From NCBI GenBank assembly GCA_001794635.1, contig MGKE01000011.1, forward strand, positions 20,682 to 84,681: a stretch of DNA of 64,000 nucleotides, written 5' to 3'. The stretch comes from Candidatus Yanofskybacteria bacterium RIFCSPLOWO2_01_FULL_39_28. GTDB lineage: Bacteria; Patescibacteriota; Minisyncoccia; 2-02-FULL-40-12; GWA2-44-9. Within the stretch, counting starts at the first letter, position 1, and every line of letters starts with the position of its first letter. The notes beneath the pieces were generated by a model that was not told the origin of the DNA, searched no databases, and saw nothing but the letters and a program-made list of their open reading frames with translations. The position numbers and the translations under genes are program-made. Shown here in pieces: positions 19,633 to 64,000 of this stretch.

Positions 19633-22146
19633 TTAATGTCCCCATATATAATTATAATCATAAATATCCTGTGTTCCTAACAATGTTGATTTACCATCGC
19701 CCACAAATTCATACATGACATTATTTATAATACTATGTCCCAAACCTAAAGCATGACCTAATTCATGAAGAATAGTATTCAAACGACCATCACCCTCGTC
19801 AAAGTTTTCCATATAATCCTTATTTAGTCTTATCTGGTCAGGATCAAAGAAAGGATTCCATTCTGCTGTCCAAGAAACACTTGTCCAATTTTCTACGTCA
19901 CGAACAAATAAATACTCTTCTGAATCTGAGGCTATATTAACTAAGCCCAGATCATTCCAAGTATCAACTGCGTCCAACCAATCAACCATATAATCAGTAG
20001 AACCCGTCCATTTTAGTTGGCCATTTTGCACTGAACCAGAGCCAGTAATATGATGCCAAGGATTATAATCAACATAATCGCTAACTGGATCCCCAAACGC
20101 AGAAGGATTTGTTGAAGAATGATATGGGCCAGTATAGCTGTCCCAGTAATTATTCTCGGCATTTACTGTATTAGCCGTATTATTGTAAATTCCATAATAA
20201 GCATTATTGCTAAACCAGGTTTCGGAAACACTTGCCAATCCATCAGCTATGCCTATGCCATAAAAATAACTTTCGGCTATCGTTGATCTATTAATTTCAA
20301 TATAGCCTCCGCCTACATAAACATTTGAATATGTGCCATCATCAGCGGTTCCTCCATATTTTATTGATGAATAACTCATACTGGCAGTTGAACCAGAATT
20401 TATCCTTATTGAATTCCAGTCACCAAACAAAGGTGTACTCCCTCCCCCGTCCCCATTGGTATCGCCTCCAACCGTGTCATCTTTATAGGACGTAAAATAT
20501 ATAGGATTTGAATAAGTCCCCTGAGCATCCAGTCTTCCATCAACATCGAAATGCGAACTAGTACTCGCGAACTTAACAATAACTCCCGGACTGATAGTAA
20601 GAGTTTTGCCGGGTTTAATCGTGAGTCCATCCTCTCCGATTACAAACGGAGTAGTTCCCGACCAGGTTTGATCGGAATTGATGAAACCGGTTATAGGACT
20701 ACCTTCAGCCGGCCATTGGGTAAGCCACGGTCCAAAGTCCGTCACGTTACTATTAAGAATATTACCAGCGCCACCGGAGTTTAACGATGAATGATATGGT
20801 CCGGAAGAATCTCCCCAATAATTGTTTCTGGCTATAACAGATGTATTGGTGCTGTATATGGCAAAATCGGAATTGTCATAAAAATGACTGCCGGAAACTG
20901 TTACCGTTCCGCTTGAGGATCGTTCTATTGCTTGATCATGACCATTAAGAACGCTGTCTTGAATATCAACTTTACCTCCGGTAACTTTGAAGCCATTCTC
21001 TGATGTTGAAGCAACTATTGAATCAGAGACATCCAGAGCGCCGCCGGTAACATAAAAGTCTCCGCTATTCATCCCCCCATACCTTATAACCGCATGACTC
21101 ACAGATGCAGTGGATCCGGAATTTATGGAAATACTCTGCCAGTCTTTAAAAGTAGGCGAAGTTGAAGAGCTGTCTCCGTTTGTATCGCCCCCGATATCAT
21201 CTTTGTAAGAAGTGAAATATACGGGTGAGCCTAGAGAACCAGAAGCATTAAGTCGTCCGTTTATACTAAGCTGGGAAGAAGTACCCTCAAACTTAACAAT
21301 AGCACCTGAATCAAGCATTAATATTTTACCGGAAGAAACAGTGAAACCGCTGTCGTCAATAATATACGGTATTTGAGCGGTCCAAGTTTGGCTTTCATCC
21401 ATTGGACCGGCAACCACAAATCCTTTTCTTCCAGTGCCAGAAGAAGTGTTACCGGATGAAGTCAAGATTAAACCATCACTGAAATCAATATAGGCAACGC
21501 CATCAGTAGTGTCAGCAACATCCCCGTTATCTGTGAAGGTGTTGTTGTTAAGTGTAAGAGTTCCTGAACCGCCGGCAGTTAAACCATGGTCGGTGGTATC
21601 TTTAATAGTATTGTTGGTGATTGATACTATGCCGCCAGTAATATCAAAGTTGTCAGAGGCTGAAGCTATTGTTGAATTGAATATGCTGAAAGTGCCGCCA
21701 CTAATATCAAAGTTAGTATCTTGTGGCGTACTTCCTCCAAAACGAATAGTGGAATATGTCATACTCACGCTGGCTCCACTATTAACTTGTATCGTCCCCC
21801 AATCATCTTTAGTGGAAGTAGTGGATGTTCCATCGCCGTTTGTATCACCGCCTATAGAGTCATCTTTAAATGATGTGAAATATGACTTGCTAGATGCATT
21901 ACCATAAGAAGAGAACTCGCCGTTAACGATTAACGATTTGTCTGTATCAAATTTAACTATCGTGCCTGGCTCAATGGTTAATTGAACACCAGAATTAACA
22001 GTTACATCTCCCGTAACAACATATACATCGCCATATTGCCAGGTGGTATTGGTTGAGATAGTGCCGGAGACTTCAATATATGCAAGGGCTGGACAAGATA
22101 CTGATAAGGAAAAAACTGCAAACAATAAGAGAAGTTTCTTGTGCAT
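19633..22146 (-). CDS. secreted multi-repeat protein with C-terminal metzincin zinc-protease motif
   Basis: Signal peptide MHKKLLLLFAVFSLSVSCPALA. Three ~230-aa repeats each contain YFTS(F/Y)KDDxxGGDTNGD...DW..I.(I/V)NSG. C-terminal HELGHALGLGH (HExxHxxGxxH). Confidence 0.8.
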   Translation of the reverse strand: MHKKLLLLFAVFSLSVSCPALAYIEVSGTISTNTTWQYGDVYVVTGDVTVNSGVQLTIEPGTIVKFDTDKSLIVNGEFSSYGNASSKSYFTSFKDDSIGGDTNGDGTSTTSTKDDWGTIQVNSGASVSMTYSTIRFGGSTPQDTNFDISGGTFSIFNSTIASASDNFDITGGIVSITNNTIKDTTDHGLTAGGSGTLTLNNNTFTDNGDVADTTDGVAYIDFSDGLILTSSGNTSSGTGRKGFVVAGPMDESQTWTAQIPYIIDDSGFTVSSGKILMLDSGAIVKFEGTSSQLSINGRLNASGSLGSPVYFTSYKDDIGGDTNGDSSSTSPTFKDWQSISINSGSTASVSHAVIRYGGMNSGDFYVTGGALDVSDSIVASTSENGFKVTGGKVDIQDSVLNGHDQAIERSSSGTVTVSGSHFYDNSDFAIYSTNTSVIARNNYWGDSSGPYHSSLNSGGAGNILNSNVTDFGPWLTQWPAEGSPITGFINSDQTWSGTTPFVIGEDGLTIKPGKTLTISPGVIVKFASTSSHFDVDGRLDAQGTYSNPIYFTSYKDDTVGGDTNGDGGGSTPLFGDWNSIRINSGSTASMSYSSIKYGGTADDGTYSNVYVGGGYIEINRSTIAESYFYGIGIADGLASVSETWFSNNAYYGIYNNTANTVNAENNYWDSYTGPYHSSTNPSAFGDPVSDYVDYNPWHHITGSGSVQNGQLKWTGSTDYMVDWLDAVDTWNDLGLVNIASDSEEYLFVRDVENWTSVSWTAEWNPFFDPDQIRLNKDYMENFDEGDGRLNTILHELGHALGLGHSIINNVMYEFVGDGKSTLLGTQDIYDYNYIWGH

Positions 22147-22208
22147 GTATTCTTATTATATTTTCTGTCCAGCTATGTGTCAAAAAAAATTATCAACAAT
22201 CCGAACTT

Positions 22209-37099: not shown

Positions 37100-37865
37100 A
37101 TTGGCGAAACTTCTGACGAGAACGGAGATCGTCGTTGGCGTTGCCGGGATTGTACCTGTTGACGTTCAGCTTGCTGTAGTTGCCGTTCCAGTTCACGCTC
37201 GGAACGTTGCCGTCGGAATACCGTGAGGCGGGGCACAAGGACACATTCTTGACATCCAAGTGCTTGCCACCGGACTTCCCACCGGATTTACAGTAGAACC
37301 AGCCATGAAGCAGCAGCGTCTCCGTAAGCCCCAGGGTGTTCATCTGGCGTTCGGCGATCTGGAAGGCAGACAGGTTGGCCAACCTTGCGGGTGGCTCGAC
37401 GCTGTCTTCGCACCACACGATACGCTGTTGCTGTCGAACATCTCGAACTTCCTTGTCGAAGTCAACGACTTCGTCCAAGGAACTAACACCGCACCATTTC
37501 CAGCACGGGAACATCGACTGAATCATCTCGTATGCCCTCTGGGGCGTCAGTCCCTTGAGCACCCAGACGCCCCAGTTAAAACCAGGGGTTACAGGCGGAA
37601 AACGCTTGAGCGAAGGCGGGTTCGCCTTCATGCCGTAGAGGCGGTAGAACTCCCGCCAATCGGCGATGAAGGCCTCCACATTTAGAAGCGGGACGGTGAC
37701 GTACGGCGAGATGCCGCCGTTGTCGCTTGAAGAAATCGCCGCTCGCGGATCATTCCGACGAACAACGATTAGTTCCCCAGAAAGAATACCCTTGGCACCT
37801 TCCTGGCCACCGATCTTGTTGCCAAGATCGCCGGTCTGCACGTAAGTCAAGTTGAAATCTGACAT
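37098..37865 (-). CDS. GC-rich DGR-target-like protein with Asn(AAC)-rich C-terminus
   Basis: The start at 37865 is preceded by GAAGAGGAG. The C-terminus SVNWNGNYSKLNVNRYNPGNANDDLRSR resembles C-type-lectin/DUF1566-type variable regions. The gene is visibly much more GC-rich than its flanks. Confidence 0.6.
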   Translation of the reverse strand: MSDFNLTYVQTGDLGNKIGGQEGAKGILSGELIVVRRNDPRAAISSSDNGGISPYVTVPLLNVEAFIADWREFYRLYGMKANPPSLKRFPPVTPGFNWGVWVLKGLTPQRAYEMIQSMFPCWKWCGVSSLDEVVDFDKEVRDVRQQQRIVWCEDSVEPPARLANLSAFQIAERQMNTLGLTETLLLHGWFYCKSGGKSGGKHLDVKNVSLCPASRYSDGNVPSVNWNGNYSKLNVNRYNPGNANDDLRSRQKFRQ

Positions 37866-38055
37866 GACACACTCCTCTTCCCGCACTACGCAGGAGAGTT
37901 TTGGCCGCACTACGCGGCAGCGATGGCCATCGTCATTGATAGCCACAGCGATAAGTTGCTCAATTCAAAGCCGCTTATCGCTGTGGCTATACAATCAAGT
38001 CGTAAATAAAGGTATTTATACTGAGCTTGTCGAAGTACTATCTAAATATATTCTA

Positions 38056-38084
38056 ATTATACGCCTTTTATACTAAAATGTCAA
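38056..38084 (-). promoter_or_regulatory. consensus sigma70-type promoter for the target gene
   Basis: Minus strand TTGACA (38084-38079), a 17-nt spacer, then TATAAT (38061-38056). Confidence 0.65.
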
Positions 38085-62095: not shown

Positions 62096-62154
62096 ATAAA
62101 CCTCAGTCCTGATGTCAAAAAACTATTTTAAAGATTATAACATAAAATTACAAT

Positions 62155-62190
62155 AAATCAAAAACTGCTCGAAAGAGCAGTTTTTGATTT
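62155..62190. terminator. perfect 16-bp hairpin with GAAA loop, downstream of 16S rRNA
   Basis: AAATCAAAAACTGCTC-GAAA-GAGCAGTTTTTGATTT. Confidence 0.65.
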
Positions 62191-62949
62191 CTCAACTTTA
62201 TACAGCTAACCAGATTCCTAAGTGATAGAAATTTTTATTCTTACTACCATTGAATTCCGATTTCGCCTTCGGACTAGGCATAAGTATTAAACTCATATCG
62301 ACTACATTTTTAATTGAAGGATAAGAGGTTGGATGTGAAAAACGATAAGTTCTTCCCATCTTTCGCCTCCCACTTCTAATCCTTTCGTGCATCCAAGAAT
62401 AAATTCTTGAATAGAAAGGAGGTGATCCAGGAGCAGCTTCCGCTACCCCTGCCTTGTTACGACTTATTTCCTGTCATCGAGCTTACCGTGTCCCCACTTT
62501 AAAAATGGATCTTCAGGTACTCCCGACTCCCTTAAATTGACGGGCAGTGAGTCCAAAATTCGAGAACGTATTCACCGCAGCGTTCTGATCTGCGATTACT
62601 AGCAATTCCGGCTTCATGGAGGCAAGTTGCAGCCTCCAATCCGAACTGGGGATGCCTTTGATGGGATTGGCTCCACCTTGCGGTTTGGCGACCCATTGTA
62701 ACATCCATTGTATCATGTGTGTAGCCCAGGGCATCAGAGGGCCACGCTGACTTGACGTCATCCCCTCCTTCCTCCTTCTTACGAAGGCAGTCTCGTGTGA
62801 CACGTATAACACACAACGGGGGTTGCGCTCGTTAACCCACTTAAGGGAACCATTCAAATGACGAGCTGACGACCGTATTCTTCCACTATTCCTAATGGTA
62901 CGGACTATACTTTCATCCAGCACATATTTCTAAAGGCCAATTTTTAAAA

Positions 62950-62979
62950 TTGACAAAAATTGATAAAATTGTCTATAAT
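62950..62979 (+). promoter_or_regulatory. near-consensus promoter antisense to the rRNA
   Basis: TTGACA (62950-62955), an 18-nt spacer, then TATAAT (62974-62979). Confidence 0.55.
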
Positions 62980-63012
62980 TATTTCGGTACATTTAATATT
63001 GAGGTATTTCAG

Positions 63013-63159
63013 ATGATAGACTCAATCATAGACCGAATCTTTGTATTTCTTATCTTGGGACTAGTGCTGTTACCTACACTTCCCCTAATCTTGCCGTTGA
63101 TTACGGTTATGGGATTCTTCTTTATTATAGATTTCTTTTGTAAACTGATTGAACAATAG
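63013..63159 (+). CDS. 48-aa hydrophobic peptide encoded antisense within the 16S insertion
   Basis: GAGG lies 8 nt upstream of the ATG. Product MIDSIIDRIFVFLILGLVLLPTLPLILPLITVMGFFFIIDFFCKLIEQ. Stem CAGCC/GGCTG plus a T-run at 63190-63210. Confidence 0.45.
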   Translation: MIDSIIDRIFVFLILGLVLLPTLPLILPLITVMGFFFIIDFFCKLIEQ

Positions 63160-64000
63160 ACAAGAAATAAACAAATACAAAACTCTTACCAGCCTTAACA
63201 GGCTGTTTTTCTTTAGAAATATGTGCTGGAGCCCACGTTTTATGGCAGTTTAAATTGTACGTCTGCCATCCTGATCCTTCAATAAACTCAGAATCAAAGT
63301 CTCTACAGGTCCCCGACCGAAAGTCGGGGTTCCCTCGGTATTGCCCTCCGCCGACTGGCGGATTTGGGTTTCACCGATATGAGTGGGTATTTTGTGCGAA
63401 AAATTACTCTTTCGCTGGCCGATTTTTTCAGTCACTAGTCACTAAACACTAGCCACTAGCAACTTCTGCTTTCAGCCGTGCAGCACCTGTCTAGCACCCT
63501 CGAAGGCTACGCCATTTCTGGCGTATGCAGCTAGATTTCAAGCCCTGGTGAGGTTCCTCGCTCAGTGTCGAATTGAACCACATGATCCACTGCTTGTGCG
63601 AATTCCCGGCTATTCCTTTGAGTTTTAATCTTGCGATCGTACTTCCCAGGCGGCAGACTTAACGCGTTAGCTACGCCACCGAAAGGGTCGATGCTCCCGA
63701 TGGCTAGTCTGCATAGTTTAGGGTGTGGAATACAAGGGTATCTAATCCTTTTTTATGCCCACACTTTCGCAACTGATCGTCAGTAGAGCCCTAGCAAGCT
63801 GCCTTCGCTTTTGGTGTTCCGTGCAATATTAATGGATTTCACCCCTACACCGCACGTTCCGCTTGCCTCTAACCCACTCTAGTCTTGCCGTTTCCGATGC
63901 GGTCTCACAGTTGAGCCATGAGATTTAACACCAGACTAACAAAACCGACTACTTGCGCTTTACGCCCAGTGATTCCGGATAACGCTTGGGGTCCTCGTAT

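Follow-up and report, generated by a model that had tools for sequence, protein, structure and literature searches.

A candidate antisense membrane-peptide gene in the P8 loop of a group I intron interrupting a CPR 16S rRNA gene

Introduction

Insertions occur in up to half of the 16S rRNA genes in bacteria of the CPR, and Brown and co-workers reportedly described in 2015 group I introns in CPR rRNA genes that usually contain LAGLIDADG genes. Homing endonucleases are a known cargo of group I introns and host genes a rare one, and the introns are supposed to decay after endonuclease loss; one non-endonuclease cargo is rps3, in an intron of the fungal mitochondrial rnl gene. The group I introns of CPR 16S and 23S rRNA genes usually bear LAGLIDADG homing endonuclease genes in the sense orientation (Tsurumaki et al. 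2024, PMC11270868). That study annotated ORFs with Pfam domains only and mentions neither antisense nor hydrophobic ORFs, and the accession of the genome analyzed here is absent from the accessible part of its supplement. Antisense protein genes are known from nuclear rDNA group I introns such as L2066, in which His-Cys box homing endonuclease genes lie on the strand opposite the rRNA (PMC9548176).

Here we analyze a 64-kb stretch of CPR DNA (the window), in which a 16S rRNA gene is interrupted by a 600-nt insert. With the CPR rRNA introns the insert shares its host group, gene, site (~45 genomes) and ribozyme core, as well as the coexistence of ORF-less and ORF-containing forms; unlike theirs, its cargo is neither an endonuclease nor 23S_rRNA_IVP, and forms an apparently autonomous antisense unit located in P8, not P6. 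As in the L2066-type introns, a protein gene occupies a peripheral loop on the strand opposite the rRNA, but those genes are eukaryotic endonucleases for intron mobility, whereas the gene in the window is a bacterial unit of sigma-70 promoter, Shine-Dalgarno sequence (SD) and terminator for a tiny, non-nuclease peptide. Like the mini-gene, rps3 is a host-type or non-mobility gene housed in a group I intron loop within an rRNA gene; rps3, however, is a large sense-strand gene of known function and not a bracketed transferable hairpin module. The 23S intervening sequences with 23S_rRNA_IVP (S23p) also combine a small ORF and a long stem in an rRNA-gene insertion, but RNase III cuts them out at the stem and they take the place of helix tips, whereas the stem in the window is internal to the ribozyme and its ORF is antisense. 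Finally, type I toxin-antitoxin (TA) systems (hok/sok, fst, tisB/istR, ldr/rdl) encode hydrophobic peptides of fewer than 60 aa (48 aa here), and they too pair an mRNA hairpin sequestering the SD and start codon with a fully complementary RNA from the opposite strand. In contrast to these systems, the peptide encoded here is unrelated to known toxin families, carries a net charge of -2 and is devoid of a basic tail, and the complementary RNA is the pre-rRNA or intron instead of a dedicated sRNA. An antisense mini-gene as the cargo of an rRNA intron appears to be undescribed in the literature searched.

Results

Alignment to the bacterial 16S rRNA model (Rfam RF00177, 788 bits) placed the gene on the minus strand at 62415-64000, its 5' end being cut by the window edge; the remainder of the gene was found in L116, which belongs to the same genome. 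The alignment contained a single unaligned block of ~600 nt between ...GCACGGCU and GUCGUCAGCUCGUC. A preliminary description of the locus had stated that the gene is interrupted by exactly 600 bp, and direct reading returned the same length (62874-63473). The part of the 5' exon that falls within the window (63474-64000) ends with ...GCACGGCU, and the 3' exon (62415-62873) starts with GUCGUCAGCUCGUC and runs to the CCUCC anti-SD 3' end. The insertion point lies in helix 34, after approximately E. coli U1060, in a universally conserved strand and not at a variable helix tip. The intron would have to leave the pre-rRNA so that the decoding-centre helix could form. Removal of the insert is presumed, given that the intron core is conserved and that the 16S gene is that of an organism found in identical form in at least 24 assemblies. 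A second 16S intron in the same genome bears a degenerate endonuclease gene.

A weak full-length alignment to Rfam RF00028, a match to a family profile and covariation across P1-P9 identify the 600-nt insert (62874-63473, minus strand) as a group I intron, putatively self-splicing, that belongs to a widespread CPR family at site ~1060, and not as a novel kind of insertion. The insert aligned to RF00028 from end to end, but with 14.8 bits against a gathering score of 50; in this alignment a loop of 275 nt and an insertion of 60 nt have to be accommodated. The RF00028 consensus was matched by J6/7-P7 (GUAGAGACU) and J8/7-P7' (UGAAAGUAUAGUCC), the core elements P3-P9 came in the canonical sequence and included the P3/P7 pseudoknot, and an inverted repeat within the insert aligned as P8. 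When an nhmmer profile was built from eight cassette-free relatives, with the window left out of the build, it matched 63424-63223 (E 5.7e-24) and 62923-62874 (E 2.1e-10), with a gap only at P8. For P1-P9, with the P3/P7 pseudoknot counted in, 45 pairs were compared: 95% of 397 cells were paired, compared with 33-50% in slid controls, and compensatory changes were present in 21 of the pairs, which none of 500 shuffles matched. A covariance-model scan for group II introns produced no match within the insert.

The features of the intron, all on the minus strand, were located as follows. The intron 5' end and an enlarged P1 loop (63421-63473) contain short CTAGTG-type direct repeats, and this stretch is missing from the short relatives in the alignment. 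The internal guide sequence GGCC (63417-63420) pairs with exon GGCU to form P1, in which the terminal U of the 5' exon makes a U.G pair with the guide at the splice site. This pairing covaries (GGCU/GGCC versus GGUU/GACC), the third exon-guide pair being C-G in five introns and U-A in three among the nine compared. The 5' part of the core (63231-63416), delimited by the Rfam alignment, covariation and the nhmmer profile, comprises P2 with a GUAA loop (63396-63415), the 5' and 3' strands of P3 (63383-63387 and 63232-63236), P4 (63373-63377/63335-63339), P5 (63366-63368/63344-63346), P6 (63307-63334), the 5' strand of P7 (63298-63301) and two extra hairpins that we label P7.1 (63273-63295) and P7.2 (63242-63269). 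The CCCCGAC/GTCGGGG and CCGCC/GGCGG hairpins to which attention had been drawn are present, and correspond to P6 and the P5 tip. The 3' part (62874-62915), defined by the Rfam consensus and the second nhmmer match, contains J8/7 (UGAAAGUAU), the 3' strand of P7 (62903-62906), the P9 hairpin (62883-62898), whose loop is GGAA, and the terminal G (62874); all same-site relatives end in ...AUAYG or ...CAG.

The same-site survey that had been proposed was carried out as a genome scan, and revealed ~45 CPR 16S genes with an intron at this position, in cassette-bearing and cassette-free forms. Nearest to the window is L056, whose exons are 90-93% identical; its intron, of 286 nt, forms a plain P8 of 7 bp and lacks the cassette. 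At 64 bits, the L106 intron exceeds the Rfam gathering score and is the only one at this site among the relatives tested to do so; those of L056, L089, L039, L044 and L085 fall below the threshold, a shortfall for which the two additional hairpins separating P7 from P3' are the probable cause. In relatives of the family the P6 loop contains an endonuclease gene of the LAGLIDADG_3 type in the sense orientation (47.8 bits), frequently in degenerate form (L084, L091, L065), and some introns of the same site contain 23S_rRNA_IVP ORFs (PMC11270868). Peripheral loops are often repeat-expanded, as in L032 and L056. The earlier statement that the insert has no endonuclease ORF agrees with our reading, the longest ORF being at most 69 aa. 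The sense LAGLIDADG_3 gene is gone here, and an antisense cassette occupies P8 instead.

In the window, the P8 hairpin is replaced by a 315-nt module, in which a perfect helix of 20 bp carries a loop of 275 nt. The inverted repeat had been described as perfect and 19 bp long; it is perfect, but its length is 20 bp (62916-62935/63211-63230). The Rfam alignment assigns the distal arm (63211-63230, minus strand) to the 5' strand of P8, which covaries in relatives, and the proximal arm (62916-62935, minus strand) to the 3' strand, and by this assignment the inverted repeat is the P8 helix of the intron. This helix would hold the cassette loop clear of the ribozyme core. No further copy of the repeat was found in the 64-kb window, where 0.01 matches were expected by chance. 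A MITE was considered in view of the inverted repeats and rejected, as there was neither a flanking target duplication nor a second copy in the window.

The 275-nt loop holds a promoter, an SD, an ORF and a terminator, all antisense to the rRNA, and each of the elements previously claimed was located on the plus strand. The sigma-70-type promoter (62950-62979) matches TTGACA-18-TATAAT at 12 of 12 positions (TTGACA at 62950-62955, TATAAT at 62974-62979). The GAGG SD (63001-63004) precedes the ATG at 63013 by 8 nt and, like the start codon, falls inside a hairpin, UUGAG...CUCAA. The hydrophobic ORF of 48 codons (MIDSIIDRIFVFLILGLVLLPTLPLILPLITVMGFFFIIDFFCKLIEQ) extends over 63013-63159, and an intrinsic terminator (63190-63210), composed of the small hairpin CAGCCTTAACAGGCTG (63190-63205) and TTTTT (63206-63210), is predicted to stop the antisense transcript within the loop; a T-run lies 3' of this hairpin on the plus strand only. 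The predicted mRNA of ~225 nt, with a 26-nt leader, is contained entirely in the loop and is without unusual structure (z = -0.8). A fully complementary RNA, the pre-rRNA or intron, follows from this layout, and on its sense strand the loop yielded neither a promoter nor a terminator for a separate sRNA. Perfect TTGACA-N16-19-TATAAT sequences were observed three times in the window, against 0.08 expected. Because another consensus promoter in the genome lies 8 nt upstream of an 837-aa ORF, and the rRNA promoter is itself one (TTGACA-17-TATAAT), we regard consensus promoters as functional in this genome.

The -35, -10, SD, ATG, stop and terminator are all kept in two homologous cassettes, L001 and L002. 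The promoter counterpart in both is TTGACA/TTGACG-17-TATATT, the SD/start hairpin is preserved by a paired change, and the terminator stem is preserved by a compensatory change to CAGCCC/GGGCTG. Comparison of the ORF with the two homologues gave dN/dS values of 0.106 (dS 0.82) and 0.18. Substitutions fell on codon positions 1, 2 and 3 in the ratio 7/2/17 in the plus-strand frame; when the same 26 substitutions were placed at random, eight or fewer amino-acid changes arose with P = 3.3e-4. Both indels within the ORF are in frame. With its control signals conserved in both homologues and dN/dS of 0.11-0.18, the unit bears out its description as a self-contained mini-gene, and these comparisons argue for a genuine, conserved gene over a chance ORF, with purifying selection on its peptide. 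There are three distinct cassette sequences only, two of them closely related, so that in essence a single deep branch carries the selection signal. The group I covariance-model check named in the preliminary description as a possible refutation was run: RF00028 spans the insert, with the ORF region in a peripheral loop. This does not refute the mini-gene, because the content of the loop is conserved and selected as coding sequence.

The peptide has a GRAVY of 1.83, a net charge of -2, no basic tail and an uncharged stretch of 31 residues, and AlphaFold2 models residues 2-47 as a single helix (pLDDT 90); the 48-aa product is thus predicted, most likely, to be a single-pass membrane peptide. 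Two homologues were found among 5.8e9 proteins, and a profile search of 1.84e9 representative proteins returned only the peptide's own cluster. A scan of viral contigs yielded no additional relatives, and comparison with Pfam, NCBIfam and PADLOC, known toxin families included, gave no match at E <= 10.

The P8 module might alternatively be an unexpressed rod-like RNA extension, its coding-like pattern arising from constraint on the sense RNA or from the small sample. The folding z of the sense RNA is -6.0, chiefly from the 20-bp stem, and internal inverted repeats connect the -10 region with the 3' UTR; repeat-expanded peripheral loops are common in these introns (L032, L056), the sample is three sequences, and gene callers missed the ORF on the window's own contigs. 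We nevertheless judge this explanation distinctly improbable. An RNA extension does not yield substitutions ordered 3 > 1 > 2 over the codon positions, a dN/dS of 0.1 and indels that are all in frame, nor does it account for a 12/12 promoter, a spaced SD-ATG pair and a hairpin with T-run ordered on one strand and conserved in three sequences. The z of only -0.8 for the predicted mRNA also speaks against it.

The coding signal could in principle belong to the opposite strand, with the antisense ORF as the automatic complement of a real rRNA-sense mirror ORF encoding a basic, K/N/R/S/I-rich peptide, with intron RNA as its message, as for intron endonucleases. The mirror frame is open in the window, L001 and L002, and the fast third codon positions are shared between the two frames; part of the periodicity is not strand-specific, because NTN/ANN complementarity forces the mirror frame to be open. 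The mirror frame has no usable ATG, GTG or TTG start in the window or L002, however, the sole start in the window lying seven codons short of the stop. Its codon pattern is 2/7/17, with more changes at position 2 than at position 1, and 11 of its codons are non-synonymous, compared with eight in the plus frame. In addition, it lacks an SD or promoter logic and has 0 homologues in 5.8e9 proteins, which together make a gene on this strand very unlikely.

A 20-bp perfect duplex is close to the minimal length of an RNase III substrate, and the insert could on this ground be an RNase III-processed intervening sequence, leaving a 16S rRNA that is fragmented or religated. 23S rRNA has intervening sequences that bear ORFs, and some introns at the site studied here carry 23S_rRNA_IVP ORFs (PMC11270868). 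The stem does not bracket the insert, however. Its arms are set back from the insert ends by 42 and 243 nt, so cleavage there would leave 285 foreign nt in helix 34, and the proposal that the repeat is an RNase III excision stem gives way to its assignment as P8. Since the stem is flanked by conserved group I core and the site lies in a universally conserved strand, such processing is scarcely credible. Equally hard to credit is a decayed homing endonuclease gene, for although degenerate copies are common in the family (L084, L091, L065) and one lies in the other 16S intron of the genome, a tblastn search of the insert with ten homing endonucleases or related-intron ORFs gave no match in the loop (best E 0.1, lying in the core), the family's endonuclease is in P6 in the sense direction and not in P8, and the other strand of the loop is occupied by the selected ORF.

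A group I intron that is not orthologous, at approximately position 330 of another organism's 16S gene (L002/L009), holds the same stem-plus-gene in its P8; the guide of that intron, GUCGC, pairs with exon GCGAU and differs from the window's. The presence of one module in both introns implies that it moves between introns. L001 has its cassette at the same insertion site as the window, and yet is closer to the L002/L009 cassette in promoter (90% identity versus 75% to the window), leader (100% versus 77%), ORF (92% versus 82%) and dS (0.20 versus 0.82). Synonymous sites differ by 43-50% between the window and L001 or L002, and by 17% between L001 and L002. The likeness of L001 to L002/L009 ends at the repeat arms, which indicates that the P8 module is a discrete transferable unit; if L001 and L002 came from one genome, this transfer could be an intragenomic copy. 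Scanning metagenomes for the 20-mer that forms the repeat arm gave seven loci, of which L007 and L009 are real and both identical to the L002 cassette. The others (L003-L006, L008) were rejected as chance 20-mer matches, with no likeness past the repeat arm and no 16S rRNA match. P6 of L001 contains a second cassette, unrelated in sequence but identical in design, for whose peptide no homologues were found.

Discussion

We consider it probable, if well short of certain, that the locus is a ~1060 group I intron in which P8 has become a mobile module with a selected antisense gene for a membrane peptide. Intron RNA, transcribed from the very strong rRNA promoter, would be the full complement of the mini-gene mRNA, with the two promoters firing head-on. 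An inverse coupling of peptide output to rRNA transcription may therefore result, by way of transcriptional interference together with antisense pairing. For the module, the intron may represent a safe harbour, because its contents would be spliced out of the host RNA.

Our leading guess, held with low confidence, is that the peptide is toxin-like or membrane-perturbing. By analogy with the known systems, toxin-style antisense control by the pre-rRNA is plausible, while the likeness to type I TA appears to be one of layout only. A bolder extension, which we regard as unlikely though worth stating, is that the intron carries a TA-like addiction module, with the pre-rRNA or intron as antitoxin, and that hairpin-bracketed antisense mini-genes form a mobile class. 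Head-on rRNA transcription and pairing with the abundant intron RNA would then silence the mini-gene mRNA, and the peptide would be translated at growth arrest, when rRNA synthesis stops, or upon loss of the intron DNA, so that a group I intron could persist without a homing endonuclease. The wider class would be a new mobile cargo colonizing the peripheral loops of rRNA introns, with two unrelated examples.

The locus thus presents an rRNA intron without an endonuclease in which an apparently complete bacterial transcription unit opposes the cell's strongest promoter, and a hairpin-packaged module, exchanged between two introns, that seems to encode a selected membrane micro-protein. If this account is true, intron loops harbour a new kind of small mobile gene, the locus is a concrete case linking rRNA transcription to antisense peptide expression, and annotation pipelines that mask rRNA or consider Pfam domains only would systematically miss such CPR genes. 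When all 116 loci retrieved were swept for hydrophobic ORFs of 25-90 aa between perfect inverted repeats of 14 bp or longer, the cassette family described here was the only one found, and its design is therefore rare among the sampled CPR 16S genes.

A group I intron interrupts the 16S rRNA gene

A minus-strand match to the bacterial 16S rRNA model of Rfam (788 bits) extends from 62415 as far as the window edge, with a single unaligned block of ~600 nt between GCACGGCU and GUCGUCAGCUCGUC. Direct reading of the sequence bore out the 600-bp interruption reported in the preliminary description: the insert is exactly 600 nt (62874–63473), its last base is G, and the last base of the 5′ exon is U. 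From the Rfam model offset and known primer coordinates, we take the insertion site to be at ~E. coli 1060/1061, in helix 34. The window sequence is identical in NCBI assembly GCA_001794285.1 (contig MGJN01000009.1), and identical contigs occur in several other metagenomes, with a neighbouring protein found exactly on 24 contigs.

We identify the insert as a group I intron. The preliminary description had called for a covariance-model scan, and in a permissive Rfam search Intron_gpI aligned over the full model length (62882–63439, minus strand) while scoring only 14.8 bits. In this alignment an inverted repeat takes the position of the P8 helix, GUAGAGACU is aligned as J6/7-P7 and UGAAAGUAUAGUCC as J8/7-P7′; hairpins already listed, CCCCGAC/GTCGGGG and CCGCC/GGCGG, were identified as P6 and the P5 tip. 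A short intron at the same site in another genome (L106) scored 64 bits, above the Rfam gathering score. We aligned nine introns at this site, with the window P8 loop swapped for GAAA, and found that the 45 pairs of P1–P9 (P3/P7 treated as a pseudoknot) were 95% paired, compared with 33–50% in slid controls. Compensatory changes affected 21 of these pairs, a count equalled by none of 500 shuffles, and the exon-guide helix covaries, guide GGCC being found where the exon is GGCU and guide GACC where it is GGUU. An nhmmer-type profile HMM built from eight relatives, with the window left out, matched the window twice, at 63424–63223 (E 5.7e-24) and 62923–62874 (E 2.1e-10), so that P8 is the only interruption in an otherwise intact family core. 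Between P7 and P3′ the window intron has two extra hairpins, which we name P7.1 and P7.2 on a presumed analogy with subgroup IA.

Short repeats of the CTAGTGA type enlarge the window intron's P1 loop (63427–63459) and the P9 region of the intron at L001 (2186–2216), a locus in another sequence; other short repeats occupy these same loops in L056 and L032. Two introns interrupt the full 16S gene, the one studied here at ~1060 and one at ~position 510, which lies past the window edge on a contig of the same genome (L116, 2487–3370) and whose LAGLIDADG gene is sense, decayed and split into 45-aa and 116-aa pieces. The window 16S gene is followed not by a 23S gene but by a 320-nt non-coding stretch (62096–62414) and then a same-strand gene for a DAO-family oxidoreductase; the rRNA genes are therefore unlinked.

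Introns at the same site in other genomes

The survey of the insertion site that had been proposed was carried out on one genome per species, by scanning for GAGCTGACGACC, a gap of 15–45 and then GACTATA, and yielded ~45 16S genes with an insertion there. Most carry labels of CPR lineages, among them Yanofsky-, Giovannoni-, Davies-, Levy-, Doudna- and Uhrbacteria, WWE3 and Saccharibacteria-labelled contigs. Introns of the short size class (193–310 nt) are ORF-less. Those of the long class (780–1020 nt) carry in the P6 loop a sense ORF of 190–235 aa, which begins within the intron core because 'GNTVGS' is encoded by GGUAAUACCGUGGGAAG; the sole ORF of this class scanned, in L040, is LAGLIDADG_3. 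No endonuclease gene is present in the window insert, as originally noted: its longest ORF is at most 69 aa, and an endonuclease remnant was undetectable. The nearest relative, L056, whose exons are 90–93% identical to those of the window, has a 286-nt intron that lacks the cassette and whose P8 is plain (CCCCGCC AAG GCGGGG).

In two Daviesbacteria introns at this site another ORF replaces the LAGLIDADG_3 gene: the L021 ORF encodes a four-helix-bundle protein of the 23S_rRNA_IVP family (PF05635, 62 bits), and the L062 ORF resembles it. Scattered IVP ORFs have likewise been reported from CPR introns (PMC11270868). Same-site introns also occur on Actinomycetota- or Gammaproteobacteria-labelled contigs (L027, L069, L010, L034, L038), reflecting either real spread beyond CPR or mis-binned CPR contigs.

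The P8 loop carries a conserved antisense gene

The window intron itself is ordinary; its novelty is a passenger mini-gene in the 275-nt P8 loop, on the strand opposite to the rRNA. The inverted repeat that forms P8 is perfect, as first described, and is 20 nt long (62916–62935/63211–63230) rather than 19. The signals listed between its arms were all recovered on the + strand: a TTGACA-18-TATAAT promoter at 62950–62979 (12/12 match), a GAGG Shine-Dalgarno sequence 8 nt 5′ of the ATG at 63013, a 48-codon ORF (63013–63159), and a terminator-like hairpin (63190–63205) followed by five T. The peptide has a GRAVY of 1.83, an uncharged stretch of 31 residues and a net charge of −2, and is predicted by AlphaFold2 to form a single uninterrupted helix from residue 2 to 47 (pLDDT 90). 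It matched nothing in Pfam, NCBIfam or PADLOC, and when 1.84e9 representatives were searched with a full HMMER profile, only its own cluster was recovered. Among 5.8e9 proteins, two relatives were found (83% and 77% identity), both encoded antisense within 16S insertions on metagenome contigs.

This antisense content is a gene, and its peptide is under purifying selection. Conservation of the ORF, promoter and Shine-Dalgarno sequence was evident in a DNA alignment of the window with L001 and L002, two other loci carrying the cassette. Common to all three cassettes are a −35 box of TTGACA or TTGACG, a −10 box of TATAAT or TATATT, the GAGG, ATG and stop, both repeat arms (20/20 and 19/20), and the terminator hairpin, with a compensated stem change from CAGCCT/AGGCTG to CAGCCC/GGGCTG. 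The window and L001 ORFs differ by 26 substitutions, distributed 7/2/17 over codon positions 1/2/3, giving a dN/dS of 0.106 at a dS of 0.82 (Nei-Gojobori); dN/dS is 0.18 for the window and L002. When 26 substitutions were placed randomly, the mean was 15.3 amino-acid changes, and eight or fewer arose in only 0.033% of trials. The two indels in the L002 ORF (12 nt and 6 nt) are both in frame.

A caveat is that a frame opposite the ORF, on the rRNA-sense strand, is likewise open in all three sequences, and both frames have the same fast third positions in common. Its openness follows from NTN codons reading ANN, never a stop, on the other strand. In neither the window nor L002 does this frame offer a usable ATG, GTG or TTG start; its position 2 changes outnumber those at position 1, it would have 11 non-synonymous codons against 8 in the + frame, and a homologue search with its peptide found none. 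The strand-asymmetric signals (promoter, Shine-Dalgarno sequence, ATG and T-run after the hairpin) all lie on the + strand.

A study that annotated Pfam-positive ORFs only, and mentions no antisense or hydrophobic ones, has described group I introns in CPR rRNA genes, both ORF-less and with LAGLIDADG or, occasionally, 23S_rRNA_IVP cargo (PMC11270868). Nuclear rDNA introns of eukaryotes can also hold antisense genes, but there the cargo is an endonuclease (PMC9548176), whereas here it is a hydrophobic peptide gene. In our literature search, no bacterial group I intron turned up with a promoter-SD-terminator mini-gene for a membrane peptide, nor did any type I toxin-antitoxin system carried by an intron.

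The stem and gene are common to two different introns

For the L001 cassette, host intron and insertion site match those of the window (3′ exon 95.9% identical). In L002, L007 and L009, the cassette resides in a different group I intron at ~E. coli 330, inserted between GCGAU and ACGGG, with its own guide GUCGC and a terminal G; this site is empty in the window's own 16S gene. Nevertheless, the cassette of L001 resembles that of L002 far more than that of the window, in promoter region (90% versus 75% identity), leader (100% versus 77%), ORF (92% versus 82%) and dS (0.20 versus 0.82), and the module has therefore been copied between non-orthologous introns. The high similarity of L001 and L002 stops at the repeat arms: past the distal arm the introns are unalignable, and past the proximal arm identity falls to 74%, the level usual for the conserved J8/7-P7-P9 segment. 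Stem plus gene is thus a transferable module, copied either within one genome or between genomes. No target duplication was seen, and no second copy was found in the 64-kb window.

L001 holds a second cassette in P6 (2653–2954), the loop occupied by the endonuclease gene in relatives. It is unrelated in sequence to the P8 cassette and identical in design, all antisense: a 21-nt inverted repeat, a TTGACT-17-TACAAT promoter, a GAGG Shine-Dalgarno sequence, a hydrophobic 55-aa ORF (2738–2905) and a terminator hairpin with a T-run. Its peptide is a singleton, without homologues among 5.8e9 proteins. A sweep of all collected loci for this design gave no further examples, so the hairpin-bracketed antisense design is rare.

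L009 has a further 16S intron at ~E. coli 790 (1811–2955), in which a LAGLIDADG_2 endonuclease (250 aa, Pfam 124 bits) and a hydrophobic 35-aa ORF lying within a hairpin (1946–2053) are both encoded on the sense strand.

Proposed working and genomic signals

We propose that the intron self-splices and that the 20-bp P8 helix keeps the 275-nt loop apart from the ribozyme core. Transcription of the mini-gene would run from ~62986 to ~63210, and its product would be inserted into the membrane. Since the mini-gene promoter points towards the rRNA promoter, and the mRNA would be wholly complementary to the intron RNA, expression should rise as rRNA transcription falls. A hairpin sequestering the Shine-Dalgarno sequence and start is kept by a paired change (UUGAG...CUCAA in the window, UCGAG...CUCGR in L001 and L002), which is weakly consistent with tight translational control. 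From the layout, a toxin-antitoxin role, suggested at the outset, or an addiction role is an attractive but speculative reading.

Consensus promoters are meaningful in this genome. The 64-kb window holds three perfect TTGACA-N16–19-TATAAT sites where 0.08 would be expected; one of them lies 8 nt upstream of an 837-aa ORF, and the rRNA promoter, read on L116, is TTGACA-17-TATAAT. A perfect TTGACA-17-TATAAT at 38056–38084 (minus strand) precedes ~200 nt that are ORF-less and contain a long hairpin; the region (37850–38084) had no match in an Rfam search and may be an unannotated small RNA. An SD-like motif precedes only ~19% of long window ORFs, and TATAAT boxes lie 6–10 nt upstream of many window ATG starts (for example, 22146–22183, minus strand), a proximity that suggests widespread leaderless mRNAs.
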